Shown piece by piece: positions 5,513 through 28,018 of a stretch of 32,000 bases of DNA (positions are counted from its first letter, which is position 1; each line of letters opens with the position of its first letter). Origin of the DNA: Sinorhizobium meliloti (GTDB lineage: Bacteria; Pseudomonadota; Alphaproteobacteria; Rhizobiales; Rhizobiaceae); assembly GCF_017876815.1 (NCBI RefSeq), contig NZ_JAGIOS010000002.1:450001-482000 (forward strand). Direction: 5' to 3'. Below the pieces are notes generated by a model, which saw only the letters and a list, made by a program, of their open reading frames with translations, did no database searches and was not told the DNA's origin. Position numbers and translations under genes: made by a program.

Positions 5513-5623
5513 AGAGCGGGATGAGGAGAACTGCATGCGGTTTTCCGCCCGCGTGCCGCCCTGCTTATTAGAATCGATTACCTCCATGATTTTAGGCCGA
5601 TCCGACTTGAAATCATAGTGATC
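5513..5623 (+). repeat. Structured intergenic repeat, copy b (RIME-like family)
   Basis: AGAGCGGGATGAGGAGAACTGCATGCGGTTTTCCGCCCGC...GAATCGAT...AAATCATAGTGATC. It aligns end to end with the reverse complement of 27855-27971, with identical blocks AGAGCGGGATGAGGA, GCGGTTTTCCGCCCGC, GAATCGAT and GTGATC. Confidence 0.65.
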
Positions 5624-8156: not shown

Positions 8157-8198
8157 GAACTGCCTCCAGGTGTTGCCTTACGAACGAGGCCGCCCGCT

Positions 8199-9638: not shown

Positions 9639-9881
9639 GATTCGCTCCTCCCGCGGTGAACCATTGCCCCCAGCGGCGGGCATTCTGCGCCTTTGCCCTG
9701 CACCCGGCAAGCAGACCCGCGGTCGCCGCCCCTAGTCCTTTGGAGTTAGGTTGCAGGGCGCCGACACGGGTTCCCGCCACCGCAATTGTTGCAATCGCGG
9801 CTAAAATGCTCCAATGAACCGCCGGCGCGGCAATCCGCGAAATGGCGGTCGAAGGCAGTATGGAGAGGGAAAGTCGTGGGC

Positions 9882-10649
9882 ATGAAGGTGGTCATTCTCG
9901 CCGGCGGATACGGCACCCGCATTTCGGAGGAGAGCCACCTCAGGCCGAAGCCTATGATCGAGATCGGCGGGCGCCCGATCCTCTGGCACATCATGAAGAT
10001 CTACAGCCATTACGGCTTTTCGGATTTCGTTATCTGCCTCGGCTATCGCGGCTACATGATCAAGGAGTACTTCTCCAACTACGTTCTGCATTCCTCCGAC
10101 GTCACCTTCGACATGGCGACGGGCGAAACAGCCTATCACACGAAGAGTGCCGAACCCTGGCGGGTGACGCTGGTCGATACGGGACCGGAATCCATGACCG
10201 GCGGCCGCCTGAAGCGTGTCGCCGGCTATCTCGGCGATACCTTCTGCCTGACCTATGGCGACGGCGTCGCCGATGTCGACGTTCGCGCGCTCACCGAATT
10301 CCATTTGCGTCACGGCCGCGAGGCGACGGTGACGAGCGTCGTGCCGCCGGGGCGCTATGGTGCGCTCGCCACCGAAGCCGGGCAGGTCATGAGCTTTACC
10401 GAAAAGCCGGCCGGCGACAACGGCCGTATCAATGGCGGCTTCTTCGTTCTCAATCGCTCCGTGCTCGACCGCATCGCGGGGGATGACGTCGCCTTCGAAA
10501 GCGCGCCGCTCGAGGGCCTGGCGCGCGACCGGCAGCTGATGGCATTCCCGCATGACGGTTTCTGGCGCCCGATGGACACGCTGCGCGACAAGACCCAGCT
10601 CGAGGAGCTCTGGCAGCAGAACCGCGCTCCCTGGAAGATCTGGGCATGA
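9882..10649 (+). CDS. rfbF: Glucose-1-phosphate cytidylyltransferase
   Basis: 256 aa from MKVVILAGGYGTRISEESHLRPKPMIEIGGRPILWHIMKIYSHYG...GFWRPMDTLRDK, full-length RfbF/DdhA pattern. Start at ATG 9882, not the track's 9786. Confidence 0.95.
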   Translation: MKVVILAGGYGTRISEESHLRPKPMIEIGGRPILWHIMKIYSHYGFSDFVICLGYRGYMIKEYFSNYVLHSSDVTFDMATGETAYHTKSAEPWRVTLVDTGPESMTGGRLKRVAGYLGDTFCLTYGDGVADVDVRALTEFHLRHGREATVTSVVPPGRYGALATEAGQVMSFTEKPAGDNGRINGGFFVLNRSVLDRIAGDDVAFESAPLEGLARDRQLMAFPHDGFWRPMDTLRDKTQLEELWQQNRAPWKIWA

Positions 10650-11716
10650 GCCGTCTCCCTGATCCGGAATTCTGGGCGGGAAAGCGCGTCCTGCTAACCG
10701 GCCATACGGGCTTCAAGGGGAGCTGGGCGGCTGTATGGCTCAAAGAGATGGGCGCGCATGTGACCGGCTATGCCCTTCCGCCCGCCTCCCGGCCGTCGCT
10801 CCATGACTTGCTGCATCCGAGCGGAGCCCTGGGCGGGCAATTCGGCGATATACGCGACGGGGAAGCGCTTGCGACGATTGCACGGAAGAGCGAGCCGGAG
10901 ATCGTCCTGCATATGGCGGCGCAGCCGCTGGTCCGCGAAAGCTATGCGGCGCCTGCCGAAACCTTCGACGTCAATGTCATGGGCACGGTCCGGCTGCTCG
11001 AAGCGGCCCGTGCGACGCCTTCCGTGAAAGCCGTTCTCGTTGTGACGACCGACAAGGTCTATCGCAACGACGAGAGCGGACGGCATTTCCGGGAGAGCGA
11101 CACGCTCGGCGGGCACGACCCCTATTCGGGCTCCAAGGCAGCCTGCGAGCTTGCCGTCGCAACCTGGCGCAGCGCCTATCTTAGAGAGTGCGGCATTCGC
11201 GTCGCCACGGCACGAGGCGGCAATGTGATCGGCGGCGGCGACTTTTCCGCCGACCGGCTGGTGCCCGACGTCGTGCGCGCCGCGCTTTCCGGCACCCGGC
11301 TCAACATCCGCAGCCCGCTCGCGACGCGCCCCTGGCAGCACGTGCTCGATTGTCTCAACGGCTATTTTCTCTTCGCCGAGGCGCTCTTCAAGGGCGAAAG
11401 CGATGTCGACGCGCTGAATTTCGGCCCCTCGCCCTCCGAGCAGGCGATCCCCGTGCGCGACGTGGCGAACGCGGTGCAGGCCGCGATGGGGCTCGACCCC
11501 GAATGGGACGACGTCTCGGCGCTCGAGCAACCGCGCGAGATGCGAACGCTCGGCCTTGATCCGGCTCTCGCCGGCGAGACCCTCGCCTGGCGCCCCCGCC
11601 TCGCCCAGAGCCAGGCGATCGAGTGGACCGCGCGCTGGTACGACGGCTGGCGTCGCGGCGAAGCTGCGCGTCAGCTCACGCTCGATCAGATAGAAGCATT
11701 CACGAAAGGCCGTTGA
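10646..11716 (+). CDS. rfbG: CDP-glucose 4,6-dehydratase
   Basis: 356 aa. FWAGKRVLLTGHTGFKGSWAAVWL (Rossmann), YSGSKAACE (YxxxK) and RPWQHVLD motifs. ATGA overlap with the rfbF stop. Confidence 0.95.
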   Translation: MSRLPDPEFWAGKRVLLTGHTGFKGSWAAVWLKEMGAHVTGYALPPASRPSLHDLLHPSGALGGQFGDIRDGEALATIARKSEPEIVLHMAAQPLVRESYAAPAETFDVNVMGTVRLLEAARATPSVKAVLVVTTDKVYRNDESGRHFRESDTLGGHDPYSGSKAACELAVATWRSAYLRECGIRVATARGGNVIGGGDFSADRLVPDVVRAALSGTRLNIRSPLATRPWQHVLDCLNGYFLFAEALFKGESDVDALNFGPSPSEQAIPVRDVANAVQAAMGLDPEWDDVSALEQPREMRTLGLDPALAGETLAWRPRLAQSQAIEWTARWYDGWRRGEAARQLTLDQIEAFTKGR

Positions 11717-11722
11717 CCCAAG

Positions 11723-12955
11723 ATGTCCCACTCCTGCCGCTTCTGCTCGACCCCGCTTGAAACCGTTGTGGCCGACCTCGGGGCGACGCCCTGGTCCAAC
11801 TCGTTTCTCGAACCGACCGAGGAGGCGATCGCCCGGGAGAAGGCTTTTCCGCTGAAGGTGATGGTCTGTTCCGAATGCCTGCTCGTCCAGACGACGGAGA
11901 CGGTCCCGGCCGACGAAATCTTCAACGCCGACTACCACTATCTCTCGTCATTCTCGACGAGCTGGCTCGACCATGCGCGCCGTTATGCAGAGGCGATGGC
12001 CGAACGCTTCGCTCTCGACGGCCGCTCGCAGGTGGTGGAAGTCGCGTCGAATGACGGCTATCTGCTGCAGTATTTCGCCGCCAAGCGAATTCCGGTGCTC
12101 GGCGTCGAGCCGGCGGCCAATGCCGCGAGGATCGCCGAAGGCCGCAACGTGCCGACTCATGTCGCCTTCTTCGGCCGCGACACAGCCAACGCGCTCGTCG
12201 CCCGCGGCATCCGCGCCGATCTCACCGCCGCCAACAATGTGCTTGCGCATGTGCCGGATATCGCCGATTTCGTCAGCGGCTTTGCGATCCTCCTGAAGCC
12301 GGACGGCGTCGCTACCTTCGAGTTTCCGCACCTCCTGCGGCTGATCGAAGGCATCCAATTCGACACGATCTATCACGAGCACTATTCCTACCTGTCGCTC
12401 GCGGCCGTCGAACGTATCTTCGCCGCTTGCGGGCTGAAGGTCTTCGATGTAGAGGAACTGCCTACCCATGGCGGCTCGCTGCGCGTCTACGCCCAGCCGG
12501 TGACCGGAACGAGACCGGCGACCGAGACGCTCGCCGAAGTGCGGGCCGAGGAGGAAAGCGTCGGGCTCACGCAGATGCCCACCTACGCCGCCTTCGGCAA
12601 GCGCATCGCTTCGGTCTGCGATGGATTCCGCGCGTTTCTCGCGGACGCCAGAAGCGAGAACAAGCGCGTGGCGGCTTATGGCGCGGCGGCAAAGGGCAAC
12701 ACCTTCCTGAACGTCTGCGGGCTCACCGCGTCGGACATCGACTTCATCGTCGACCGCAACGATCTGAAGCAGGGCAAGCTCTCGCCCGGCAGCCACATTC
12801 CGATCTACGATCCCGCCAGGATCGAGGCCGTAAAACCCGACTATGTCGTCATCCTGCCCTGGAACCTGACCGACGAGATCGTCGCCGCCCACGCCTATAT
12901 CCGCTCCTGGGGCGGCCGCTTCGTCGTCGCCATTCCGCAAGTGCGGGTGATCTGA
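11723..12955 (+). CDS. NDP-hexose C-methyltransferase (TylCIII/EvaC-like; Zn-ribbon Methyltransf_13 + Methyltransf_14 architecture)
   Basis: 410 aa. N-terminal CRFC...CSEC zinc ribbon, SAM motif VVEVASNDGYLL, HEHYSYLS motif and a C-terminal domain ending PWNLTDEI, as in sugar C-methyltransferases. It starts 6 nt after rfbG. Confidence 0.85.
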   Translation: MSHSCRFCSTPLETVVADLGATPWSNSFLEPTEEAIAREKAFPLKVMVCSECLLVQTTETVPADEIFNADYHYLSSFSTSWLDHARRYAEAMAERFALDGRSQVVEVASNDGYLLQYFAAKRIPVLGVEPAANAARIAEGRNVPTHVAFFGRDTANALVARGIRADLTAANNVLAHVPDIADFVSGFAILLKPDGVATFEFPHLLRLIEGIQFDTIYHEHYSYLSLAAVERIFAACGLKVFDVEELPTHGGSLRVYAQPVTGTRPATETLAEVRAEEESVGLTQMPTYAAFGKRIASVCDGFRAFLADARSENKRVAAYGAAAKGNTFLNVCGLTASDIDFIVDRNDLKQGKLSPGSHIPIYDPARIEAVKPDYVVILPWNLTDEIVAAHAYIRSWGGRFVVAIPQVRVI

Positions 12956-12972
12956 GCCGGGCTGCCTGCACC

Positions 12973-13860
12973 TCATTCGCCCAGGCTGCCCGATCGCCTC
13001 CGGTATTCCGACGGGCTGCATCCCATCAGATCCTGGAACTGGGTCGACAGGTGAAAGGCCGAGCTAAATCCGAGCAAGGCGGCAATTTCCTTGATAGGCT
13101 TATCCGTATTGGTCAGGATGTCCTGTGTCCGCCGGATCCTGAGCGCCATCTGGTGCTGCTTGGGTGAGGCTCCCGTCTTCTCCTTGAATACCCTCCGGAA
13201 ATAGGAATAGCTGACACCGAGTTCGCGGGCGATTTCCTCGACCGGCATCTGGTCCGCACAGCGTTCCATCAAGAGCACGCGCGCCCTTTCGACCAGCCGG
13301 TCCGCAGGAGCAGCGGAGGCGCCTTCCTGCTGCTGTGAGAGTAGCGCCAGCAATTGCAGGCCGAGCGTTGATAGAACCGGCTGGTTTTTCAAACCGTCTT
13401 CGACAGCACGGTCGTGAATCTCATCGAAAATGGCGGCGAATTCCGGCCCCGAGGGCAAGACGGGGCGCGCGGGGTCGATTAGGCCAATCGCACGCGCAAA
13501 GTCGAATGCCGCGCTTCGGCATTCTATCCAGTTCTCCGTCCAGCCCAGTTCCGGATCCGGAGCAAACCGATGCCAGACGCCGGGGAACAGGAGAACGATC
13601 GATCCGCCTTCCACCAGTTGCGTTTTCCCGCGCCGTCCGAATTCGAACATGCCCCGCCCGTCCGCGATCAGGATCACCTGATAGGCCTGGAGGATCCTCC
13701 CTCTTTTCCAGTCGAAGTGGTGGTCATCGGGATGACGTATCGGCGGGTAGATCGAATGCGGAGGTATTTTCGTATGGCCGGTCGATACTGCCGTGCACCC
13801 CCAGGCCGAACACAGCCTGTTATCGGGCAGATAGAGGAAATAGTTCTCCGCCAAAGGCAT
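12973..13860 (-). CDS. AraC-family transcriptional regulator (cupin-like sensor + dual HTH)
   Basis: 295 aa. C-terminal AraC HTH: VEEIARELGVSYSYFRRVFKEKTGASPKQH...IKEIAALLGFSSAFHLSTQFQDLMGCSPSEYR. Confidence 0.9.
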   Translation of the reverse strand: MPLAENYFLYLPDNRLCSAWGCTAVSTGHTKIPPHSIYPPIRHPDDHHFDWKRGRILQAYQVILIADGRGMFEFGRRGKTQLVEGGSIVLLFPGVWHRFAPDPELGWTENWIECRSAAFDFARAIGLIDPARPVLPSGPEFAAIFDEIHDRAVEDGLKNQPVLSTLGLQLLALLSQQQEGASAAPADRLVERARVLLMERCADQMPVEEIARELGVSYSYFRRVFKEKTGASPKQHQMALRIRRTQDILTNTDKPIKEIAALLGFSSAFHLSTQFQDLMGCSPSEYRRRSGSLGE

Positions 13861-13868
13861 CCCCTCAG

Positions 13869-13899
13869 GATCACTTTTTATATGCTTCTGATCATTTTT
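13869..13899. promoter_or_regulatory. Direct repeat GATCA(C)TTTTT x2 spaced 21 bp; candidate AraC-family operator
   Basis: GATCACTTTTT at 13869-13879 and GATCATTTTT at 13890-13899 lie in the AT-rich stretch just upstream of the AraC start, within the AraC/isomerase divergent region. AraC-type regulators typically bind direct repeats about two helical turns apart. Confidence 0.35.
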
Positions 13900-14022
13900 G
13901 CGGAAAAGACCATGATGTCAATCCGCATGGCCGATGCTAGGGTTTACCCGGGGATGCAAGTTTCGGCTGTCGGCAACGGAAGCCGCCATGGCCGCAGGGA
14001 GAGCGCGGTCCTCGGAGGAGAT

Positions 14023-14109
14023 ATGATGAACCGATCGCCGCACGGGGCAGCAGGCACGAGCCTGCTGCCGGAGCATGATCTTTGCCTTGCGGTTGCGGGG
14101 CGCTCATGA
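14023..14109 (+). CDS. Candidate 28-codon leader ORF translationally coupled to the isomerase gene
   Basis: Strong SD GGAGGAG (14014-14020), then ATGATG, reading MMNRSPHGAAGTSLLPEHDLCLAVAGRS. Its TGA (14107-14109) overlaps the isomerase ATG (14106-14108) as ATGA. No homology evidence is available. Confidence 0.3.
   Translation: MMNRSPHGAAGTSLLPEHDLCLAVAGRS
14046..14069 (+). promoter_or_regulatory. Perfect 10-bp stem / 4-nt loop hairpin in the isomerase leader
   Basis: GGCAGCAGGC-ACGA-GCCTGCTGCC, inside the candidate leader ORF and 37 nt upstream of the isomerase ATG. No U-tract follows it. Confidence 0.4.
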
Positions 14110-15533
14110 CGGACCGCATCTTGAAGGTGGGCCTCTTCGGCATCGGTCTGTCCACTTACTGGCCCCAGTTTGAGAGCCTGGAGGATCGGCTCACAGGCTA
14201 TGTCGGACAGATGGCCGAGAAATTGGCCCGACCCGACATCGAGGTGGTGAACCTGGGCCTCATCGACTCTGCCGAGGCGGCATACGACGCTGGTCACCGC
14301 TTTCGCGAGGCCGATGTCGATATCATATTCCTTCACGTCACTACCTATGCTCTGTCGTCCACCGTTCTGCCCGTGGTCCGGCGAGCCCGCGTGCCGGTGG
14401 TGATCCTCAATCTTCAGCCTGCGGCCGCGATCGACTACCACAGCTTCAATGCGCTCGGCGACAGGACCAAGATGACCGGTGACTGGCTCGCCCATTGCGG
14501 AGCCTGCCCGGTACCGGAAATCGCCAATGTGTTCCGGCGGTCCGGCATCGCGTTCCACCAGATCACGGGCATGCTCAACGGCGATCCGCATGTCGACCGG
14601 GAGATTGGCGACTGGATGGACGCGGCGCGGGTCGCCCATGTCATGGCACATAACCGCCTGGGCGTGATGGGCCGGTACTATAACGGCATGCTCGACATCT
14701 ATTCCGACCTGACCGCCCAAGCGGCCGCCTTCGGAACCCACATCGAGATCGTCGAGATCGACGAGCTCGCCCGGCTCCGGCGCGAGGCGACCGAGGCGGA
14801 GGTCGAGCTTTGCCTCGAAAATATCCGGAGCGAGTTCGACATCCAGCCGGACTGCGATCCCGCCGAACTGCACCGGGCAGCGCATACGGCCGTGGCCCTG
14901 CGCAAGCTTGCCGAGCAGAAAAGGCTCGGCTCGCTCGCCTACTATTACGAATCGGTGGCGGGGCATGAATACGAGGATCTCATCGCATCGGTGATCGTCG
15001 GGTGCTCGCTTCTGACGGCGGCAGGCATTCCGGTCGCGGGCGAGTACGAGATCAAGAACGCCCAGGCGATGAAGATCATGGACACCTTCGGCGCGGGCGG
15101 ATCCTTCACCGAATACTACGCCATGGACTTCAACGACGACGTCGTCGTCATGGGGCATGACGGACCGGGGCACATCAAGGTTTCGGAAGGCAGAACGAAG
15201 ATACGTCCCCTCAAGGTTTATCACGGCAAGGTCGGCTCCGGCATCAGCGTCGAAATGTCCGTCAGGCATGGTCCCGTGACGCTTCTTTCCGTGATCGAGC
15301 GTGAGGGCCGGATCGTCCTCCTATGTGCGGAGGGACAATCCGTGCCTGGTCCGGTTCTCGAGATCGGGAATACCAACAGCCGCTACAAGTTCGATGTCGG
15401 GGCGCGCCGTTTCGTGGAGGACTGGAACGCGCAGGGACCGGCGCATCACTGCGCCGTCGGCGTCGGTCACATCGCCCGCAAGATCGCAAAACTCGGCGAA
15501 CTTCTCGGTCTGCAAGTGGTCCAGGTGTGCTGA
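14106..15533 (+). CDS. L-arabinose isomerase-family (AraA/FucI-like) sugar isomerase
   Basis: 475 aa from MTDRILKVGLFGIG. Metal/catalytic-site-like positions VAGEYEIKNA, GGSFTEYYAMDF, VMGHDGPGH and GPAHHCAVGVGH are collinear with AGEGDWK, TSFMEDY, LGSHMLE and GAHH of E. coli AraA as I recall it. Confidence 0.85.
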   Translation: MTDRILKVGLFGIGLSTYWPQFESLEDRLTGYVGQMAEKLARPDIEVVNLGLIDSAEAAYDAGHRFREADVDIIFLHVTTYALSSTVLPVVRRARVPVVILNLQPAAAIDYHSFNALGDRTKMTGDWLAHCGACPVPEIANVFRRSGIAFHQITGMLNGDPHVDREIGDWMDAARVAHVMAHNRLGVMGRYYNGMLDIYSDLTAQAAAFGTHIEIVEIDELARLRREATEAEVELCLENIRSEFDIQPDCDPAELHRAAHTAVALRKLAEQKRLGSLAYYYESVAGHEYEDLIASVIVGCSLLTAAGIPVAGEYEIKNAQAMKIMDTFGAGGSFTEYYAMDFNDDVVVMGHDGPGHIKVSEGRTKIRPLKVYHGKVGSGISVEMSVRHGPVTLLSVIEREGRIVLLCAEGQSVPGPVLEIGNTNSRYKFDVGARRFVEDWNAQGPAHHCAVGVGHIARKIAKLGELLGLQVVQVC

Positions 15534-15606
15534 ACGGACAAATCCGGGAGAGCTGCAACTCGAGACCCGCGAGAAACCTATAGTCAACAGGTGAGGAGGA
15601 CCTGAA

Positions 15607-16668
15607 ATGCCTGCAGAAAAATCAACGAACTTCATCCGAGCGCGGCGGCTGATCGGCCTGTTCTTTGCCGCCACCATGGGGCTGGCAAGCCCGATGGCGA
15701 CCGCGGCGGAGATCAATCTGGACGCACCAGCCCCGACCTTTCCTCCCGAGATCGCCAAGTTTCAGGCGATCGAGCCCGGCAGCGCCGAAGGCCTGACAAT
15801 CGGATTCACCCAGCTCATTCTCGGCGTCCCCTTCCCCGATGCACTTCAGGCCGGCATGGAGAAGGCTGCTGAAACGGCCGGCTTCAAGCTGGTCACCTGC
15901 GACTCCAAGCTCGACGCAGCGACGGCACTCAACTGCGCCCGCCAGTTCAAGACCCAGAATGTCGACGGCCTCGTCACCTTTCAGGCGGACGCCGCCGCTG
16001 CTGCCAACATCTGCGCCGAGGGCCCGCAGGTGCCGGTCATCGCCATCGACATCGAACAGAAACCTTGCGAAACGGCCTTCGTCGGTGCCGCCAATTCCTA
16101 TGCCGGCGAGATCGTGGGCCACGAGCTGGGTATGCACTTCGCCAAAAACTTCAACTGCGAGTACGACGCCTTCGTCTCGCTGGAATCGACGGCCGTCGGC
16201 GTCGTCAACGACCAGCGCATGGGCGGCATCCGCAAGGCATTCGAAGCGGTGTGCGGGCCGGTACAGAACCTTCGCATCATCGACACCGGTGCCGGCGGGC
16301 AGGCCGATGCAGCGCAGCGCCAGTTCACTGACACGTTGACGGCTCTTCCCGGCGCCACCAAGGTCATCACGGTCGGCATCAACGAGGACGTCGTCATAGC
16401 CGCCCTTGCGGCGGCGCGCACCCAGGGTCGCAACCAGGACCTGTATCTCGGCGTCCAGAACTTTGACCCCGACAATTGCCAGATCTGGACTGCGTCGCAT
16501 TTCATCGCGACTGCCGCCTATTTCCCGGAGCGGTATGCCGAGCTGATCGTTCCCAATCTGGTGAAGGCCATCAAGGGCGAGACGATCAACCAGCAGATTC
16601 TCGTTCCGCATGAACTGATCACGCCGGAGAACATCTCCAAGGTCTATCCGGAGTTTGCCTGCAAATGA
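15607..16668 (+). CDS. Sugar ABC transporter substrate-binding protein (PBP1/RbsB-like)
   Basis: 353 aa with a signal peptide (LIGLFFAATMGLASPMATAAE) and a periplasmic-binding-protein type 1 pattern (GFTQLILGVPF..., VDGLVTFQ, VIAIDI). Strong SD GAGGAGG. Confidence 0.9.
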   Translation: MPAEKSTNFIRARRLIGLFFAATMGLASPMATAAEINLDAPAPTFPPEIAKFQAIEPGSAEGLTIGFTQLILGVPFPDALQAGMEKAAETAGFKLVTCDSKLDAATALNCARQFKTQNVDGLVTFQADAAAAANICAEGPQVPVIAIDIEQKPCETAFVGAANSYAGEIVGHELGMHFAKNFNCEYDAFVSLESTAVGVVNDQRMGGIRKAFEAVCGPVQNLRIIDTGAGGQADAAQRQFTDTLTALPGATKVITVGINEDVVIAALAAARTQGRNQDLYLGVQNFDPDNCQIWTASHFIATAAYFPERYAELIVPNLVKAIKGETINQQILVPHELITPENISKVYPEFACK

Positions 16669-18161
16669 CGGCGGATTTCCTCGCCGTACGCGGCATCAGG
16701 AAATCGTTCGGCCAGATCGAGGTTCTCCATGGCGTGGACCTCGATCTGCCGGCAGGAACGATTACCGCCCTTCTGGGGGAGAACGGGGCCGGCAAGTCCA
16801 CATTCGTGCGGATCCTGGCCGGAGACCACATGCCCGACGGCGGCACGATCTCTGTGGACGGCGCCGTTGCCTCCTTTCGCGGTGTGGGAGATGCGCGCGC
16901 GGCGGGAATCCGTTTGATCGCCCAGGAGATCGCCGATGCGCGGACGCTCTCGGTGGCGGAGAACATTCTGCTCGGTGCATGGCCGACGCGGGCCGGGCTC
17001 GTCGATTACCGGTCCATGCGCGAACTGGCACGACAGGCGCTGGAAATGCTTGGCACCGAACTTCCACTGGAGGCGAAGGTCGCCTCTCTGCGGTTGGGCG
17101 AACGGCAGATCATCGAGATCGCCCGCTCCACGATAGGCGCCTCGAAATGCATTATTTTCGACGAGGCGACCGCGGCCCTCTCGGACGCGGAGGCACGCAA
17201 ACTCTTCCAGTTGATTCGGCGTCTTGCGGGACGCGGCGTCGCCATTCTCTACATCACCCACCGGCTCGATGAAGTGTTCGCGCTTGCCGACCGGGTGTGT
17301 GTCCTGCGCGACGGCCGCGTTTCCCTTGATAGCGCGGCGGGCGACGTCACTCAGGACCAGGTCATAGAGGCGATGGTGGGCCGCGCGGTCGCTTATGCGC
17401 GACATGCCGTACCGCCATCGACCGACGCTCCTCCGGTGCTGAAAGCAACCGGCCTGGGGTCTGCTTCCTTCTTAGACGTTTCCTTTGCGTTGCGCCCGGG
17501 CGAGATCCTGGGCGTCTACGGTAAGGTCGGCTCGGGCGTTCAGGAATTGTCGAGTTCGCTGGTCGGCGCGCGCGCATTCGACGAAGGAACACTGTATGTG
17601 GAAGGCTCGCCGAGGCACTTCCGGCACCCGGCGGACGCGATTGCGGCTGGCATAGGCCATCTATCGGCGGATCGCGCGGCCGACGGCCTGCTTCGAACGA
17701 TGACGCTTGCGGAAAATCTTTCAGCTCCCAGCTGGGGCCGCTTGGCCAGGCGCGGCTTCGTGAACCGCCGCAAGCTGCGCCAGGCCTATTGCCGCTGGCA
17801 TCGCACGTTGCACATCAAGGCCGCCGGTTCCGGCGAACAACTGATCACGGAACTGTCCGGCGGCAACCAGCAGAAGGTTCTGCTAGGCCGGTGGCTTGAA
17901 GCCGGTTCGAAAATCCTCGTGCTGAGCGAACCGACACGCGGCGTCGACGTCGGCGCCCGCCAGGAAATTTACCGCGTGCTCGCCGGACTGGCTGCCAAGG
18001 GCCACGCCATCGTCGTCGCCACCTCGGATTACGAGGACATCACGGCCGTTGCCAGCCGCGCGCTGGTCATGGTGCGCGGACGGATGGTCGCTGAGATCCC
18101 GTACGAGCGCATTTCGACTGAAGCCCTGACTGAAGCCGCAGGAGGCGGTGTCCATGCCTGA
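16665..18161 (+). CDS. Sugar ABC transporter ATP-binding protein (duplicated NBD, RbsA/CUT2 type)
   Basis: 498 aa. Walker A GENGAGKST, Walker B IIFDEATAAL, second-domain signature LSGGNQQKV and LVLSEPTRGVD. ATGA overlap with the SBP stop. Confidence 0.95.
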   Translation: MTADFLAVRGIRKSFGQIEVLHGVDLDLPAGTITALLGENGAGKSTFVRILAGDHMPDGGTISVDGAVASFRGVGDARAAGIRLIAQEIADARTLSVAENILLGAWPTRAGLVDYRSMRELARQALEMLGTELPLEAKVASLRLGERQIIEIARSTIGASKCIIFDEATAALSDAEARKLFQLIRRLAGRGVAILYITHRLDEVFALADRVCVLRDGRVSLDSAAGDVTQDQVIEAMVGRAVAYARHAVPPSTDAPPVLKATGLGSASFLDVSFALRPGEILGVYGKVGSGVQELSSSLVGARAFDEGTLYVEGSPRHFRHPADAIAAGIGHLSADRAADGLLRTMTLAENLSAPSWGRLARRGFVNRRKLRQAYCRWHRTLHIKAAGSGEQLITELSGGNQQKVLLGRWLEAGSKILVLSEPTRGVDVGARQEIYRVLAGLAAKGHAIVVATSDYEDITAVASRALVMVRGRMVAEIPYERISTEALTEAAGGGVHA

Positions 18162-19149
18162 CAGTCTTCAATCCGAGACCCTCCCCATGGCCGATCTGGA
18201 GCGCAACCGGAACAGGGCGGCAATCCGCAGGGCGCCGGAATCGGCCGCCCTGCTCGCATTCCTTGTTGCGGAGATCATCTTCTTCTCGCTGAGCTCACCC
18301 TACTTCCTGACCTGGGGAAACTGGGTCAATGTCTTCACCGCGCTTTCGATCACCGGCGTTCTTGCCGCGGGAGGCACAATGCTTCTGATTGCGGGCCAAT
18401 TCGATCTGTCGGTCGGTAGCGGCGTCGCCTTCGTCGCCCTCTTGCTGGCCTTGACCATCGACAGCCTGGGGGTTCTGCCGGCCAGCGTGCTTGCGATGCT
18501 CGTCGGCGTCGGAATCGGCCTGATCAACGGCTTTCTGGTGACGAGGATCGGTGTCAACGCGCTCATCACAACGCTCGGGACGCTGGCCATCTTTCGCGGC
18601 CTCACGCAGTCCATCGGCGGCGGCAGGAATATCCCGATCGCCAATTTCGACTGGGCTATCTGGCGTCCCTTCCTGAACATTCCGCTCTCGGCGCTCGTCT
18701 TCCTGCTCGTTGCTATCATGGTCGGCATCGTGCTCAAACGCTCCGTCTTCGGCCGCTCGATCTATGCGATCGGCGCGAATGAAAACGCTGCCCGCCTCGT
18801 CGGCATCAGGACCAAGGGCGTGGTATTCGCGGGCTTTCTCCTCTCCGGCGCCTTCATCGGGCTCGGCGGTCTCATCAGCGCCTCGCAGCTCGGCTCGACA
18901 TCCGGAACCACGGGTCTCGGATTGGAGCTTGCCGTCGTCACGGCAGTCATTCTGGGAGGTACCTCGCTGAAGGGCGGGACCGGCACCATGCTCGGTACCG
19001 TGATCGGATTGTTGATTGTCGGCGTTCTCAACAACGGCTTGACGCTGATGAACGTCAACTCGTCCTGGCAGCAGGCCGCCACGGGCTTACTTTTGATCCT
19101 GGCCGTGTCTTTCGATCAGCTCCGGCAGCGGCTCGTCGGCCGACGGTGA
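18154..19149 (+). CDS. Sugar ABC transporter permease (RbsC/CUT2 type)
   Basis: About 331 aa, multi-helix hydrophobic, with the typical GQFDLSVGS and GGTSLKGGTG motifs. ATG 18154 lies 8 nt after GGAGG; the track start GTG 18148 is too close to the SD. It overlaps the ATPase stop (18159-18161). Confidence 0.9.
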   Translation: MPDSLQSETLPMADLERNRNRAAIRRAPESAALLAFLVAEIIFFSLSSPYFLTWGNWVNVFTALSITGVLAAGGTMLLIAGQFDLSVGSGVAFVALLLALTIDSLGVLPASVLAMLVGVGIGLINGFLVTRIGVNALITTLGTLAIFRGLTQSIGGGRNIPIANFDWAIWRPFLNIPLSALVFLLVAIMVGIVLKRSVFGRSIYAIGANENAARLVGIRTKGVVFAGFLLSGAFIGLGGLISASQLGSTSGTTGLGLELAVVTAVILGGTSLKGGTGTMLGTVIGLLIVGVLNNGLTLMNVNSSWQQAATGLLLILAVSFDQLRQRLVGRR

Positions 19150-19151
19150 AC

Positions 19152-20888
19152 ATGATGCACACGCAATCGACGATCCGCCTGCTCGACAATATAGATGTCC
19201 CGATGCGCGATGGCGTGAGGCTGAAGACGGATATCTGGCTACCCGCGACGGAAGAGCCGTGCCCCGTTCTGCTGCAGCGAACGCCGTATCGTCGGGAGAC
19301 GCCGTTCGGCTCCCAGTACATTTCAACATTGGAGTTCCAGACGGCTCTAGGACGGGGCTATGCCGTCGTCGTGCAGGATACGCGAGGGCGTTACGGCTCG
19401 GAAGGCGATTTCACCCCCTTCCAGACCGAGGCGAGCGATGGGGCGGATACCATCGGCTGGCTTCGTATGCAGCCGTTCTGCAACGGCTCGGTTGCGATGT
19501 TCGGCGCCTCCTATGTCGGTGCGACGCAGATCCTCGCTCTTGCGGAAAACCCGGAAGGTCTGAAGGCGATAGCGCCGCAGCTGACTACAGCCCGCCACGG
19601 CGAAACCTGGATGTATCGCGGCGGAGCGGTGGAACTCGCCTTCATACTACTTTGGGTGATCGAATCCCTTGGTCCCGATCATCTGCAGCATCGTACCGCT
19701 TTCTTGCCGGCAGACATGCGCGAGCGTGCCCGGGCTTTGTTGCAGACGTTGCGGGAGAGCCCTCACGCCGCCTTCGAGCGTCTTCCGGTCCTCGATGACG
19801 CGATCATCGAGCTTGCACCATACCTCGCGGACTGGCTCGATTCGAAAGCGATCGCCGGCGAGCGCAACCGCGACCGTCTCGAATGGGTTGAGAAAAGTCG
19901 GGCGGCGCTGCTCGTGGTCGGCGGCTGGAACGACATCTTCGTGGAAGGGTCGATCGAGCTCTTCGAGAAGGCGAGATCGCGCTGGTCCCGAGGCGAGTAC
20001 ATGCCAGACCGCCTTATCATCGGTCCCTGGTCGCACGGCAACCCGACCGACTGGCAGGGCCGCGAGTGGCTGGGTTACGCTGCGTCCACCGTCGATCTCC
20101 CGGAGGAAACCCTAAGGTTCTTCGACAGCGCTTTCGAGGACCGGGAACCGGCATCCCCCGTGGTCCGCTACTTCCGCTCCGGATCCAACACCTGGCACGC
20201 CGCGCCCGACTGGCCCCTTCCGGACAGCATTAAGGTGTCGCTCATTCTCGATTGCAGCCGGTTTTCGCTCGGCTCCACGCCTGCCGAACAGGCGAGTGCT
20301 TCCTTCATCTCCGACCCGTTGAAGCCGGTTCCCACTGCCGGTGGCGCCACTTTTCTGCCCGGCCTTTTGCTCGGCCGCAACTCCGGCCCGGTGGACCAGG
20401 CCGCGATCGAAGCGCGCGACGATGTCGTGATTTTCACCGGCCAACCGCTGGGTGAAGATCTGGAGGTTACGGGACTAGTCAGAGCACGGCTCTGGGTATC
20501 GTCCTCAGCCGCAAGCTGTGACTGGACGGCACGGCTCTGCGAAGTCGGCGCGGATGGCGGAAGCTCCGGCATTGTGGACGGCATCCTGCGCTGGTCCCGT
20601 TCGAGACAAGCAGGAGGCGAACCACAAGAAGTCGCCGTGCGCCTCGGTCACATCAGCCGCCTGTTCCGCAAGGGATGCAGGCTCCGGCTGCAGATCGCCT
20701 CGTCGAACTTTCCACGCTTCGACCGCAATCCGCAGTCCGGCATCCCGCCGACCTTGGCGAGAGCCTCCGATTTCATCAGAGCAGAACAGCGCATCTTCTC
20801 GGGAGAGGCTTTCCCAAGCCGACTCATCCTGCCAGTGGTGACCACGAGCTATGCGCAGGCGGAAACGCTGTCGGCACTGGGAAGGTAA
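19152..20888 (+). CDS. CocE/NonD-family hydrolase (X-Pro dipeptidyl-peptidase S15 fold)
   Basis: About 578 aa. DGVRLKTDIWLP...PVLLQRTPY, VVVQDTRGRYGSEG and the nucleophile motif GASYVG, plus the C-terminal beta-jelly-roll signature NFPRFDRNPQ. The start region overlaps the permease stop (19147-19149), so it is in the same operon. The exact start is uncertain (19146, 19152 or 19155). Confidence 0.9.
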   Translation: MMHTQSTIRLLDNIDVPMRDGVRLKTDIWLPATEEPCPVLLQRTPYRRETPFGSQYISTLEFQTALGRGYAVVVQDTRGRYGSEGDFTPFQTEASDGADTIGWLRMQPFCNGSVAMFGASYVGATQILALAENPEGLKAIAPQLTTARHGETWMYRGGAVELAFILLWVIESLGPDHLQHRTAFLPADMRERARALLQTLRESPHAAFERLPVLDDAIIELAPYLADWLDSKAIAGERNRDRLEWVEKSRAALLVVGGWNDIFVEGSIELFEKARSRWSRGEYMPDRLIIGPWSHGNPTDWQGREWLGYAASTVDLPEETLRFFDSAFEDREPASPVVRYFRSGSNTWHAAPDWPLPDSIKVSLILDCSRFSLGSTPAEQASASFISDPLKPVPTAGGATFLPGLLLGRNSGPVDQAAIEARDDVVIFTGQPLGEDLEVTGLVRARLWVSSSAASCDWTARLCEVGADGGSSGIVDGILRWSRSRQAGGEPQEVAVRLGHISRLFRKGCRLRLQIASSNFPRFDRNPQSGIPPTLARASDFIRAEQRIFSGEAFPSRLILPVVTTSYAQAETLSALGR

Positions 20889-20934
20889 GATACTTGCAGT
20901 CGCGGCGATCTCCCTCAAACGGGAAGCGGACCGA

Positions 20935-21711
20935 TCAAAGCCTCTTCAGGAAGCCATCCGGCGCAACGGTCACCATCAACTTGTTCTGAACCGACCGGTC
21001 GATCTCGAACTCAGGATGCGACTTCAGATACTCATGCACCGCGGTCTTCGGATTGTCGCCCACGTCCCAGGGGCGGTCGTCGAAGAAACCCGCGGGCATG
21101 TCTTCGACCAGAGTGTCGAAGACCACGCAATAGCAGCCGGCCGTCACCAACGGCGCATAGGCTTCGAGTTCGGCGAGCACATGCGCATGGGTATGCATGG
21201 AATCGAGGCATACCATGACGCGGCTGTAGCCGGCCGACGCCTCGCGCACCTGCGTGACGATGTCCGGATCGATGGAAGATCCCTCAAACATCTGGATGCG
21301 GCTCGCCAACGGATGGCTCTCGATCGCCGCGCGGTTGTGGGGGCGGATGTCGATGTCGATGCCGATGACCTTGCGCTTGGACCGGCTGGGGTCGAATGAA
21401 ACGCCCGCCTCGATCGCGTCGCACATGTCGAGCATCGCGAGCAGCGAGGCGCTCATGATCAGCGAGCCGCCATGCGCGATCCCCGTCTCGATCACCAGAT
21501 CGGGCCGTGTCGCCCAGATCAACTCCTGCATCGCCACGATATCCTGCGGATATTGGATGATCGGGCGCCCCATCCAATCGAAATTATAGACGTAGCGCTT
21601 CGCCATAGAAGCCTCGCGCCACCGGTTCGAAAGCGCCTTGAAATCGCCGTCACGGCCATAGCCGTCGATCGCGGCCGCCCGCTCGGTGCGGAATTGTTCG
21701 ATGGGGTCCAT
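20935..21711 (-). CDS. CmcI / rhamnosyl O-methyltransferase-family SAM-dependent methyltransferase (annotated generically as cephalosporin hydroxylase family)
   Basis: 258 aa. WMGRPIIQYPQDIVAMQELIW..PDLVIETGIAHGGSLI...IGIDIDIRPHN...CLDSMHTHAHVL matches the CmcI family. Its start lies 1 nt downstream of the stop of the preceding SDR gene. Confidence 0.85.
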   Translation of the reverse strand: MDPIEQFRTERAAAIDGYGRDGDFKALSNRWREASMAKRYVYNFDWMGRPIIQYPQDIVAMQELIWATRPDLVIETGIAHGGSLIMSASLLAMLDMCDAIEAGVSFDPSRSKRKVIGIDIDIRPHNRAAIESHPLASRIQMFEGSSIDPDIVTQVREASAGYSRVMVCLDSMHTHAHVLAELEAYAPLVTAGCYCVVFDTLVEDMPAGFFDDRPWDVGDNPKTAVHEYLKSHPEFEIDRSVQNKLMVTVAPDGFLKRL

Positions 21712-21712
21712 G

Positions 21713-22555
21713 TCAGATCCTGCTTCTTGTGGAGGGCCGCGGGTGGGAACCGGTATCCGGCTCTCCCTCGCCCAGGATTTCTGCGATGCGCTCTAGCACA
21801 GGTGCTGCAGCAAAAGCGAACTCGTCCTTCGACCTGTCGACAGAGATCGGTGCGAATGAAATCGTCGGCGCACCTTCGTCCACAGCTACGGAGCATTTCG
21901 TCCGGGATTGGATGGCTGCGCACCACTCGGCGTGGCTCGTCTGACGCCCGCTTGCGACGTTGTAGACGGAATGGCGGCCCTCCTGCGCGATCCGCAAGAG
22001 GAGGTCCACGGCATCGTCGATCCAGATATAATCCTTGCTCGAATCGAGCGCGGTTTGGAGCTGGATACGGCCGCTGCCTGCCTCCCGGCACAGCGCGCCC
22101 AGGAACGTGTCCGACTTCGCCTCGCCGGGCCCGACGACGTTCGACAAGCGGGCGACCCGCACCTTCTCGCGGCCGGAGGCGAGGCAGATCGCTTCGCCCG
22201 TCAACTTGGAGAGATTGTAGAGATCCGAAGGATCGAGCGGCGAGGCCGACAGCCGGGCTTCCTCGCGCGTATCTTCGCTGCCGGCATAGACTCGAGTGGA
22301 CGAGAGATAGAGAAAGGACGAAAACCCATTCTCCCGCAGGAGCTTCGCTGCGAGCGAGACATGCGCTTCGATGGTGTCGAACGGCCGGGTGCGGAAATCG
22401 GCCGTAAGGCCGATGGCAAAGATGACATGGCCGAGGTCCTCGCCGGCCGCAGGCATAGCGGCGCGGGAAGGAACACGCACCTCGGCACCCCGGTTGCGCA
22501 ATCGGCGGACGAGATTGCGCCCGATGAAACCGGAGCCGCCGAATACCGTGAACAT
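21713..22555 (-). CDS. NAD(P)-dependent epimerase/dehydratase-family SDR (probable NDP-4-ketohexose reductase)
   Basis: 280 aa from MFTVFGGSGFIGRNL (GxxGxxG), with catalytic SST...YNLSK (YxxxK). Its ATG shares 1 nt (22555) with the TGA of the upstream acetyltransferase. The track ORF extends to 22807, which would overlap that gene. Confidence 0.85.
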   Translation of the reverse strand: MFTVFGGSGFIGRNLVRRLRNRGAEVRVPSRAAMPAAGEDLGHVIFAIGLTADFRTRPFDTIEAHVSLAAKLLRENGFSSFLYLSSTRVYAGSEDTREEARLSASPLDPSDLYNLSKLTGEAICLASGREKVRVARLSNVVGPGEAKSDTFLGALCREAGSGRIQLQTALDSSKDYIWIDDAVDLLLRIAQEGRHSVYNVASGRQTSHAEWCAAIQSRTKCSVAVDEGAPTISFAPISVDRSKDEFAFAAAPVLERIAEILGEGEPDTGSHPRPSTRSRI

Positions 22556-23043
22556 CACGATCGCACCCCCAGGCGCCTCAGCGGATTGCCGCCGCAGACG
22601 GTGTAGGCTTCGACCTCGCCGCGCACGATGGACCCGGCGGCGATGACACAGCCCTTGCGCAACAGGGCGCCGTCCAGGATGACCGAATTCGCCCCGATCC
22701 AGACATCCTCCTCGACGAGGATGCCGCCGCGGCTCGGCAGGAAGCCCTGTTCCCGGATCAGGCGATCCCGGTCGCCATAGGCGTGATTGACCGGAGCGAA
22801 GGTACAATTGGCCGCGATCAAGACATTGTCGGCTATGCTTATCCCGTTGCCGGTGTAGAAGACGCAGCCGCTGTTGACATAACAGAAGCGGCCGATCGTG
22901 AGATCGCCGGTGCCGCCCACCGGTTTGACCTTGACGAAGCTGTCGATGACCGATGCTTCTCCGACGACGATCCGTGTGCCGCGCACGGAATCCTCGATAT
23001 CGCAGAGCGGGCTGATCTTAGCCGAGGGATGCACCTCGATCAT
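22555..23043 (-). CDS. Left-handed beta-helix (hexapeptide repeat) acyl/acetyltransferase
   Basis: 162 aa from MIEVHPSAKISPLCDI. Hexapeptide repeats include IGANSVILDGALLRKGCVIAAGSIVRGEV. SD GGAGT lies upstream of the ATG at complement of 23041-23043. Confidence 0.85.
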   Translation of the reverse strand: MIEVHPSAKISPLCDIEDSVRGTRIVVGEASVIDSFVKVKPVGGTGDLTIGRFCYVNSGCVFYTGNGISIADNVLIAANCTFAPVNHAYGDRDRLIREQGFLPSRGGILVEEDVWIGANSVILDGALLRKGCVIAAGSIVRGEVEAYTVCGGNPLRRLGVRS

Positions 23044-23083
23044 GATGACTCCGACATTCGAACTCCCGGATTTCGCCGGCACT

Positions 23084-23123
23084 AGCGACCTTTGCGCGTC
23101 TGATGAGACGCGCAAAGGTCGCT
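23084..23123. promoter_or_regulatory. Perfect 17-bp inverted repeat (6-nt spacer) in the divergent promoter region of the sugar genes
   Basis: AGCGACCTTTGCGCGTC-TGATGA-GACGCGCAAAGGTCGCT read directly. It lies 41 nt from the acetyltransferase ATG and 99 nt from the epimerase ATG. Confidence 0.7.
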
Positions 23124-23221
23124 GTAGAGGGCTGTCTCAGTTCTCTTTTCCAGTTAGCGCTTGCCGCGTCAACGCCGGATCGTGCAAGAAGCACCGGTTG
23201 AAATGTTCTCTCGGGGGCCTC

Positions 23222-23761
23222 ATGTCGCGGTTCAGCCGTCTCTCCACGCCACTCGCGGGCCTGACTGTCATCGAGCGCAAGCAGATGGGTGACGAACGCG
23301 GCTTTTTCTCACGCTTCTTCTGCCGGGACGAATTGCGCGATTTCGGAGCTGACGGAACGATCTCGCAGATCAACCACACCCTGACGCGAACGAAGGGCAC
23401 GATCCGTGGCATGCACTTCCAGCGGCCGCCCCATGACGAGGCGAAGTTCGTCTCGTGCCTGGCCGGCGCTGTTTTCGACGTCGCCGTCGACATCAGGCCG
23501 GATTCACCCACCTATCTGCAATGGCACGGTGAAATCCTGAGTGCCGAGAATGCCCGCTCGATGATGATCCCCGGCGGGTTTGCCCATGGATTCCAGACGC
23601 TGAGCGAGAATTGCGAACTCGTCTACCTGCACGACAAGCCCTACGCGCCCGACGCGGAAGGCGGGCTCAATCCGCTCGACCCGCGGCTTGCCATTTCCTG
23701 GCCGCTCGAAGTGGCGCAGATGTCCGAGCGCGATCGCGCCTTCGCCTTCATCTCCGCTTGA
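23222..23761 (+). CDS. NDP-4-keto-6-deoxyhexose 3,5-epimerase (dTDP-4-dehydrorhamnose 3,5-epimerase/RfbC family cupin)
   Basis: 179 aa from MSRFSRLSTPLAGLTVIE...DERGFFSRFF...IRGMHFQ...KFVSCLAGAVFDVAVDIR...IPGGFAHGFQTL...YLHDKPYAPDAEGGLNPLDPRLAISWP, collinear with RmlC/RfbC motifs. Confidence 0.9.
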   Translation: MSRFSRLSTPLAGLTVIERKQMGDERGFFSRFFCRDELRDFGADGTISQINHTLTRTKGTIRGMHFQRPPHDEAKFVSCLAGAVFDVAVDIRPDSPTYLQWHGEILSAENARSMMIPGGFAHGFQTLSENCELVYLHDKPYAPDAEGGLNPLDPRLAISWPLEVAQMSERDRAFAFISA

Positions 23762-27854: not shown

Positions 27855-27971
27855 GATCACGTTCATGCTTTTCGGCCGAGTCGACCTGAAAGCATGAACG
27901 TGATCGATTCCAAGAAGTTGAGACGCGGCATGCGGGCGGAAAACCGCGCACATTTTTCCTCATCCCGCTCT
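27855..27971 (-). repeat. Structured intergenic repeat, copy c (RIME-like family), most complete copy
   Basis: It contains a perfect 17-bp inverted repeat GATCACGTTCATGCTTT / AAAGCATGAACGTGATC (27855-27871 / 27889-27905, 17-nt spacer). This is followed by GATTCCAAGAAGTTGAGACGCGGCATGCGGGCGGAAAACCGCGCACATTTTTCCTCATCCCGCTCT. Its reverse complement aligns with 5513-5623. Confidence 0.65.
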
Positions 27972-28018
27972 ATCTCTCCCGGAGGCTGCGCTGCCATCGT
28001 GGTTCAGCAGCTCGTGCC

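Follow-up and report, generated by a model that had tools for sequence, protein, structure and literature searches.

Seven genes on pSymB of Sinorhizobium meliloti as a likely module for a CDP-activated, branched, methylated 6-deoxy-L-hexose, with an orthologous operon in Azotobacter vinelandii

3-C-Methyl-2-O-methyl sugars are known from mycobacterial glycolipids, and 6-deoxy-L-hexoses decorated with O-methyl or O-acetyl groups are known from rhizobial O-antigens. Cytidine diphosphate (CDP)-vinelose and its 4-O-(O-methylglycolyl) ester were reportedly obtained from Azotobacter vinelandii strain O by Okuda, Suzuki and Suzuki in 1967-68; we take CDP-vinelose to be CDP-6-deoxy-3-C-methyl-2-O-methyl-L-talose, and A. 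vinelandii strain DJ is presumably a descendant of strain O. Our literature search found no gene assignment for vinelose or CDP-vinelose. Here, we report on a set of seven genes in a 32-kb stretch of Sinorhizobium meliloti DNA (32,000 nucleotides, the window hereafter) that originates from the pSymB megaplasmid (megablast, 100% identity to NZ_CP021802) and whose counterpart in strain 1021 is NC_003078, ~1,342-1,363 kb (megablast, 99.2% identity). In published tables the seven are named SMb21416 (ddhA), SMb21417 (ddhB), SMb21418 (NDP-hexose 3-C-methyltransferase), SMb21425, SMb21426, SMb21427 and SMb21428 (rmlC). We consider it likely that they form one module for a CDP-activated, branched, methylated 6-deoxy-L-hexose of vinelose type that feeds lipopolysaccharide (LPS). 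The two halves of the set, which are separated in this strain, are treated as one unit on the basis of intraspecies variation, synteny and a shared transposon sequencing (Tn-seq) phenotype. The more specific proposal, that the module is the CDP-vinelose pathway itself and serves flagellin glycosylation in A. vinelandii and beta-proteobacteria and acetyl-vinelose LPS in S. meliloti, has in our view about an even chance of being right.

Genes were called by GC3-guided open reading frame (ORF) calling together with profile searches (Pfam, NCBIfam), and the 30 major ORFs were run through Pfam. All seven were found at the positions and in the families that a first-pass annotation of this DNA had given them. 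On the plus strand, rfbF/ddhA (9882-10649) encodes a glucose-1-phosphate cytidylyltransferase (TIGR02623 equivalog, 431 bits against a cut-off of 300) and overlaps by 4 nt with rfbG/ddhB (10646-11716), which encodes a CDP-glucose 4,6-dehydratase (TIGR02622 equivalog, 479 bits against 278); SMb21418 (11723-12955) follows as a TylCIII/TcaB9-type nucleoside diphosphate (NDP)-hexose C-methyltransferase with PF08421, PF13489 and PF08484. The second half begins with three genes on the minus strand, i.e., SMb21427 (22555-23043), a 162-aa left-handed beta-helix hexapeptide acyltransferase (PF00132), SMb21426 (21713-22555), a short extended short-chain dehydrogenase/reductase (SDR; PF01370, GGSGFIG and YNLSK motifs), and SMb21425 (20935-21711), a methyltransferase of the CmcI/rhamnosyl-O-methyltransferase family (PF04989). 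The start/stop coupling claimed for this trio is indeed present, with TGATG at the acyltransferase/SDR junction and a gap of 1 nt between SDR and CmcI. Divergent from the trio, on the plus strand, is rmlC (23222-23761), an RmlC-type 3,5-epimerase (TIGR01221, 161.7 bits against 155.75).

The entry steps have family-level support from the equivalog hidden Markov models: RfbF would make CDP-D-glucose, and RfbG would convert it to CDP-4-keto-6-deoxy-D-glucose. The RmlC-type enzyme would epimerise this sugar beside the 4-keto group and the TcaB9-type enzyme would add a methyl group from S-adenosylmethionine at C3, in either order. SMb21418 has the complete three-domain architecture of such C-methyltransferases (N-terminal zinc-binding domain PF08421, 75 bits; SAM-binding domain PF13489, 56 bits; C-terminal domain PF08484, 202 bits) and aligns over its full length with the solved sugar 3-C-methyltransferases MtmC (4rv9, 2e-81), KijD1 (5t64) and TcaB9 (3ndi). 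Aligned with these three proteins, its four zinc cysteines (C5, C8, C49 and C52) are conserved, and so are the Tyr of YHYLSS, the His of LAHVP and the YHEH (Y-x-E-H) motif, positions assigned here to the TcaB9 active site. The rmlC product matches Salmonella RmlC (1dzr, 2e-38), is nearer to the true double epimerases than to EvaD, and conserves the H in RGMHFQ, the K in EAKFV, the Y in KPYAP and the D in SERD, residues that presumably have the catalytic roles. Family and catalytic residues are thereby conserved in both enzymes; CDP specificity and C3 regiochemistry are predictions, according to which SMb21418 would methylate C3 of a CDP-4-ketosugar and the RmlC-type enzyme would act on a CDP-4-keto-6-deoxyhexose.

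The other three enzymes would finish the sugar. The SDR SMb21426 has the GxxGxxG and YxxxK motifs and is a putative CDP-4-ketosugar 4-reductase, which would reduce C4; it matched no curated reductase family, and its best solved relative is GDP-6-deoxy-D-mannose reductase (6x3b, 4e-10), with no close characterised relative. SMb21425 scores 319 bits in PF04989 against a gathering score of 23.2, fails the mycobacterial rhamnosyl O-methyltransferase equivalog NF045824 (84 bits against a cut-off of 400) and is weakly similar to CmcI itself (1.6e-4); it belongs to a distinct subfamily, more than 60% conserved across proteobacteria, that is tied to rfbF/rfbG/C-methyltransferase operons. It is predicted to O-methylate a CDP-6-deoxy-L-hexose, probably at O-2, a position proposed from the precedent of the mycobacterial CmcI-family enzyme Rv2959c, which we take to 2-O-methylate rhamnose; the substrate of SMb21425 is probably a nucleotide sugar rather than a finished glycolipid. 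The nearest solved proteins to SMb21427 are galactoside, maltose and xenobiotic O-acetyltransferases, one His falls on the ATH motif of 3ftt in the alignment, and the protein is 69%, 73% and 62% identical to its counterparts in A. vinelandii, Agrobacterium and Desulfolutivibrio, respectively. It would O-acetylate the sugar late, probably at O-4, a position suggested by the ester of the CDP-sugar in A. vinelandii. For S. meliloti we predict CDP-6-deoxy-3-C-methyl-2-O-methyl-L-talose (vinelose) or a close stereoisomer as the product, plus an O-acetyl group, and a glycosyltransferase encoded elsewhere would move the sugar to LPS, where it would contribute to resistance to cationic peptides.

A. 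vinelandii had been proposed at the first pass as a place to look for the same seven genes, and in strain NBRC 13581 they form one operon, all on one strand and overlapping or abutting, in the order RfbF-RfbG-RmlC-C-methyltransferase-acetyltransferase-SDR-CmcI; genes for a PhyH-family dioxygenase and a TylF-family methyltransferase come next. Identities between the S. meliloti and A. vinelandii proteins are 65% for RfbF, 47% for RfbG, 59% for RmlC, 53% for the C-methyltransferase, 69% for the acetyltransferase, 53% for the SDR and 66% for CmcI. The opposite strand encodes a 1257-aa glycosyltransferase of TPR-GT41-GT2 architecture and flagellin. Strain DJ (CP001157.1, 2,846,979-2,868,208, with the operon at ~2.853-2.861 Mb) and other A. 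vinelandii assemblies have an identical C-methyltransferase and the same gene order, and FlhE, a FliA-type sigma factor and FlaG are neighbours of the DJ island. From the operon to the glycosyltransferase, the G+C content is 45-59% over most of the island (L034 5001-17000 / L092), against a genome value that we assume to be ~66%, which suggests that the island was horizontally acquired. Immediately upstream of it are HicB, Gp49 and HTH genes.

If the structure given above is right, the A. vinelandii island would hold one enzyme for each feature of the CDP-vinelose ester, i.e., CDP activation, 6-deoxygenation, L-series epimerisation, C-methylation, 4-reduction, O-acylation and a hydroxylase that turns acetyl into glycolyl, with three methyltransferases for its three methyl groups. 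The PhyH-family enzyme and the third methyltransferase (TylF) would then account for the 4-O-(O-methylglycolyl) ester. The S. meliloti window has no homologue of either (tblastn, best E-values 1.3 and 4.7), so the S. meliloti ester is expected to stop at acetyl. A literature search on flagellin glycosylation in A. vinelandii found nothing relevant.

We then looked at the module in other bacteria by a genome scan that took a single genome for each species and used the CmcI subfamily as its anchor; 80 loci were kept among the 600 pattern matches listed. Please note that the 80 loci are a sample and not a census, that S. meliloti itself is outside them, and that the counts refer to the fetched DNA, at most 10 kb on either side of the CmcI anchor. 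A C-methyltransferase was near the anchor in 69 of the 80 loci, and RfbF, RfbG, RmlC and the C-methyltransferase together in 59; all seven genes were present in 15, nearly always in the same order. Agrobacterium cavarae and Acidovorax sp. LjRoot66 have the single operon RfbF-RfbG-RmlC-C-methyltransferase-acetyltransferase-SDR-CmcI. The set is also unsplit in Ensifer adhaerens SD006, where rmlC is divergent from acetyltransferase-SDR-CmcI-rfbF-rfbG-C-methyltransferase (58-87% identity). Partial sets occur in Desulfolutivibrio (six of seven) and Cupriavidus (five of seven).

In most other bacteria that carry the module, it is located in a flagellar gene cluster. The flavour with acetyltransferase and SDR was found at 21 loci, 15 of which adjoin a flagellin gene and/or a GT41-like glycosyltransferase gene. 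In Rhizobium populisoli the module lies inside a flagellar cluster, and a GT41-like transferase and flagellar genes flank it in A. vinelandii, Acidovorax, Comamonas, Cupriavidus and R. populisoli, with tetratricopeptide (TPR) repeats in the GT41-like proteins of A. vinelandii, Acidovorax and Cupriavidus. The module would belong to a flagellin glycosylation island in A. vinelandii as well as in many beta-proteobacteria. The copy of E. adhaerens SD006, like that of S. meliloti, is without flagellar or GT41 neighbours. At another 21 loci, a DegT aminotransferase takes the place of acetyltransferase and SDR, and the product of this flavour may be an N-acylated 4-amino-3-C-methyl-2-O-methyl sugar, kansosamine-like. 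Rhizobium mesoamericanum-type strains (L008) have a different SDR and an extra methyltransferase instead of the SDR and acetyltransferase. Variable tailoring genes and frequent flagellar neighbours point to a mobile core with variable tailoring, mostly for flagellin, and RfbF-RfbG-RmlC-C-methyltransferase plus CmcI seems to be a widespread mobile module and a general route to 3-C-methyl-2-O-methyl surface sugars.

Some individual loci deserve mention. Another E. adhaerens strain (GCA_014851775, L006 1-11233) has RfbF-RfbG-(RmlC)-C-methyltransferase with a DegT aminotransferase and a CmcI-family gene, and in addition WbqC, ATP-grasp, metallophosphatase, PhyH and extra methyltransferase genes. 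Two Mycobacterium species (L046, L068) have a CmcI-subfamily gene 65-66% identical to that of S. meliloti, with RfbF, RfbG, RmlC and the C-methyltransferase nearby; these loci may relate to the 3-C-methyl-2-O-methyl sugars of mycobacterial glycolipids. In A. cavarae (L011 1-18777), the operon and an adjacent GT2 gene (L011 9853-10686) are located between an integrase gene and a BrnT/BrnA toxin-antitoxin pair, followed by a phage lysozyme and a Phage_GPD-family (baseplate or VgrG-like) gene, a setting which raises the possibility that the module travels with an integrated element.

The several flavours of CmcI-anchored modules bear on the exact structure. One CDP pathway could lead to another stereo- or regio-isomer, e.g., 3-C-methyl-rhamnose (evalose-type, manno), a sugar methylated at O-4 or one acetylated elsewhere, and we regard this as unlikely. 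C4 stereochemistry and the sites of methylation and acetylation are not readable from sequence, the SDR, C-methyltransferase and RfbG are the least similar to A. vinelandii, and 3-C-methyl-rhamnose has been reported in the O-antigens of Azorhizobium caulinodans and Burkholderia andropogonis. Against such an isomer stand the same seven families in A. vinelandii and the same order in unsplit relatives; moreover, the high conservation of the acetyltransferase and CmcI argues for the same substrate. A vinelose-type product is kept as the preferred assignment.

The first-pass annotation considered the acceptor glycan unknown, which does not wholly hold, as links of these genes to LPS and polymyxin have been published. 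According to Table S3 of the Tn-seq study by Arnold et al. (2017), just 47 genes fall at or below a polymyxin B competition index of 0.5, and the set of seven is included in full. Their values in the two replicates are 0.13/0.13 for ddhA, 0.14/0.16 for ddhB, 0.17/0.19 for SMb21418, 0.15/0.19 for SMb21425, 0.13/0.22 for SMb21426, 0.38/0.42 for SMb21427 and 0.25/0.21 for rmlC; none of the six intervening genes, SM_b21419-21424, is in that table. The acetyltransferase SMb21427 has the mildest effect of the seven, which fits a late tailoring step. The signature of the seven genes, strong with polymyxin and mild with the nodule-specific cysteine-rich (NCR) peptide NCR247, groups with envelope genes (Arnold et al. 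2017). Altered LPS of ddhB and SMb21425 mutants is stated by Arnold et al. (2017) with reference to Campbell (2003), and we take it here as given in that statement. Cytidylate kinase (cmk) and the chromosomal glycosyltransferase SMc04185 share the signature of strong polymyxin and mild NCR247 effects (Arnold et al. 2017). The former fits the need for CTP, although other explanations exist, and the latter is a lead as candidate transferase for the sugar.

It is conceivable that the pathway operates as described but that its sugar decorates flagellin or another glycoconjugate in S. meliloti, the LPS and polymyxin effects being indirect. The flagellin and GT41-like neighbours at most loci of the acetyltransferase-SDR flavour, R. 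populisoli and A. vinelandii included, speak for this possibility. The 32-kb window, however, has no GT41, TPR or flagellar gene (Pfam, tblastn) and is, by its neighbours, not a flagellin glycosylation island; the closest unsplit relative, E. adhaerens SD006, is likewise without them. The LPS alteration attributed to ddhB and SMb21425 mutants in the cited statement and the clustering of the Tn-seq signature with envelope genes also disagree with it, and we judge it quite improbable. LPS is retained as the acceptor in our model of the S. meliloti pathway.

The split of the gene set, described in the first-pass annotation, is true for this strain, but it is not fixed in the species. The two halves are separated by a 7.95-kb block (12954-20903) that is not of the pathway (Pfam, NCBIfam), with an AraC regulator (12973-13860, minus strand), an AraA-like isomerase (14106-15533, plus strand), three sugar ABC transporter genes, i.e., binding protein (15607-16668), ATPase (16665-18161) and permease (18148-19149), and a CocE/NonD hydrolase (19146-20888). 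The block is an unrelated sugar-uptake operon that occurs in some S. meliloti strains only. At least 80% of a 17.7-kb query was covered in 36 plasmid records, whereas S. meliloti SM11, RU11/001, Ak57 and others (at least five S. meliloti records) lack the block, as does Sinorhizobium sp. M103. In its place, these strains have 330 bp containing a repeated 86-bp element, and rfbF-rfbG-C-methyltransferase and CmcI-SDR-acetyltransferase / rmlC are contiguous, all inside 6.3 kb (e.g., Ak57). The separation of the two halves is therefore a strain polymorphism, an insertion-deletion, and not a species-wide trait. A Rhizobium phaseoli plasmid (H107) carries DNA ~77% identical to the block. Copies of the 86-bp intergenic element, 78-84% identical, are located at 5513-5597 and 27885-27972 of the window and in the 330-bp stretch of Ak57 (L098 6503-6589); it may be an S. 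meliloti intergenic mosaic repeat. At the same site in S. medicae, from the FAD oxidase to the iron ABC transporter, six of the seven genes are absent together, in agreement with Sugawara (2013), and only a 165-aa rmlC-like gene is left (strain ml29, L099 4814-5311), which looks like a remnant of the lost cluster.

These data largely refute two independent pathways, in which rfbF-rfbG-C-methyltransferase would make a CDP-linked branched sugar and rmlC-SDR-acetyltransferase-CmcI a decorated deoxythymidine diphosphate (dTDP)- or GDP-linked 6-deoxy-L-hexose, rhamnose or 6-deoxytalose. RmlC barely passes the dTDP-4-dehydrorhamnose epimerase equivalog, and the halves are 8 kb apart here, both of which would suit this scheme. 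The halves are, however, contiguous in S. meliloti strains without the block and in at least 15 other genomes, with RmlC between RfbG and the C-methyltransferase; they were lost jointly in S. medicae and share one quantitative Tn-seq phenotype, and profile searches found no rmlA, rmlB or gmd in the window. Two pathways are consequently very improbable. A CDP-3,6-dideoxyhexose locus (abequose, paratose or tyvelose), as the names ddhA and ddhB imply, is hardly credible: RfbF and RfbG do catalyse its first two steps, but the E1 (DdhC, a pyridoxamine phosphate-dependent DegT-family dehydrase) and E3 (DdhD reductase) that it requires are missing from the window and from the contiguous operons of Agrobacterium, Acidovorax and A. 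vinelandii, and a C-methyltransferase stands where they would be, for which reason we reject this reading.

All checks that could be run support a single pathway to a CDP-linked C-methyl, O-methyl 6-deoxy-L-hexose, as the first-pass annotation had suggested, whereas the identity and stereochemistry of the sugar are still a matter of inference. Several points weigh against our reading, and it is better to state them together. The window has no glycosyltransferase: by Pfam, no aminotransferase is among the 30 major ORFs, nor, as the first pass had also seen, is a glycosyltransferase, flippase, polymerase or E1/E3 enzyme, and DegT, GT2, GT41, PhyH, TylF and flagellin queries gave nothing below E = 0.1 in the window by tblastn. 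RfbG, the C-methyltransferase and the SDR are no more than 47-53% identical to the A. vinelandii proteins, and the SDR falls below the reductase equivalogs (RmlD TIGR01214, 34 bits against a cut-off of 224). The replacement of SDR and acetyltransferase in Rhizobium (L008) means that related modules make different end products. Our literature search found no S. meliloti LPS sugar analysis with a C-methyl sugar, and a review on the LPS of diazotrophs gives no S. meliloti O-antigen composition. The A. vinelandii island is proposed as the source of CDP-vinelose, rather than another locus, from gene content alone, and nucleotide specificity, regiochemistry and stereochemistry are beyond what sequence can tell.

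Between the divergent acetyltransferase and rmlC genes, the 178-bp intergenic region contains a perfect inverted repeat of 18 bp with a 4-nt spacer (23084-23123; AGCGACCTTTGCGCGTCT / 4 nt / AGACGCGCAAAGGTCGCT), found by a repeat search. The window has a single copy, which S. meliloti 1021, ml47 and Ak57 share without change and which E. adhaerens SD006 lacks; S. medicae has a shorter related palindrome upstream of the rmlC remnant. The repeat may act as an operator or fold into an RNA hairpin. Rfam found no RNA families in the window, and promoter and terminator scans gave results at or below chance. Divergent from rfbF are genes for a pyridoxal phosphate (PLP)-dependent decarboxylase and a BBE-type FAD oxidase (6735-9710), which are retained in S. 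medicae without the sugar genes and are probably outside the pathway. At the left end of the window there are two tandem Ku-domain genes (1001-2715; 294 and 272 aa; non-homologous end-joining proteins) and a 115-aa ORF (3336-3683) whose match is confined to the C-terminal part of a LysR substrate-binding domain and which probably represents a gene fragment. At the right-hand end, two TRAP permease genes were named via NCBIfam and the record annotation.

The LPS and polymyxin link of the S. meliloti genes is already published; the product class, the indel nature of the split, the orthologous A. vinelandii operon and the flagellin context seem to be new within the literature that could be searched. 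A misleading dideoxyhexose annotation (ddhA/ddhB) is replaced by a specific, testable product for genes of LPS and of polymyxin and NCR resistance, genes that S. meliloti has and its sister species S. medicae does not. CDP-vinelose, chemically known for about sixty years, gains a set of candidate genes, with flagellin glycosylation as its possible role. C-methyl and O-methyl surface sugars alter hydrophobicity and phage receptors, and they may also affect how plants recognise flagellin and LPS. If the full proposal is true, an orphan nucleotide sugar of the 1960s would obtain both genes and function; in A. vinelandii, the TPR-GT41 enzyme would O-glycosylate flagellin, with PhyH and TylF turning the 4-O-acetyl into an O-methylglycolyl group, and in S. 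meliloti a hydrophobic, branched acetyl-vinelose would shield the cell from polymyxin and host NCR peptides and would separate this species from S. medicae.

Compared with known systems, the S. meliloti module shares the RfbF/DdhA and RfbG/DdhB entry with the CDP-3,6-dideoxyhexose loci of Salmonella and Yersinia (ddh/rfb/asc), but it is without E1/E3 and has a C-methyltransferase, an RmlC-type epimerase, an O-methyltransferase and an acetyltransferase. The GDP-virenose route of Coxiella burnetii (PMC3539893, PMC3204966) similarly gives a C3-methylated 6-deoxyhexose of LPS by a TylCIII-like methyltransferase, an epimerase and a reductase; in contrast, it is based on GDP-mannose, lacks O-methyl and O-acetyl steps and exists as an in-silico proposal only. 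Flagellin O-glycosylation islands in Pseudomonas, Burkholderia and Acidovorax have TPR/GT41 genes beside fliC, neighbours that the LPS-linked S. meliloti copy does not have. With CmcI and the mycobacterial rhamnosyl O-methyltransferases, SMb21425 shares Pfam membership (PF04989) and a predicted 6-deoxy-L-hexose substrate with a rhamnose-like C2, but it falls below the NF045824 cut-off and belongs to its own conserved subfamily. The dTDP-sugar routes of actinomycetes (TylC3 for mycarose, SnogG2 for nogalose, TcaB9, KijD1, MtmC) use the same C-methyltransferase family with the same active-site residues and the same logic of 4,6-dehydratase, RmlC-type epimerase, C-methyltransferase and 4-ketoreductase; the S. 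meliloti entry enzymes, however, are CDP equivalogs, the sugar would retain 2-OH and 3-OH, and the module serves cell-surface glycans rather than secondary metabolites. Unlike the A. vinelandii system, that of S. meliloti has no PhyH/TylF extension and is linked to LPS instead of being flagellar, yet CDP-vinelose, with the structure given above, has the very combination of CDP, 6-deoxy, C-methyl, O-methyl and O-acyl features that would be the output of the seven families.

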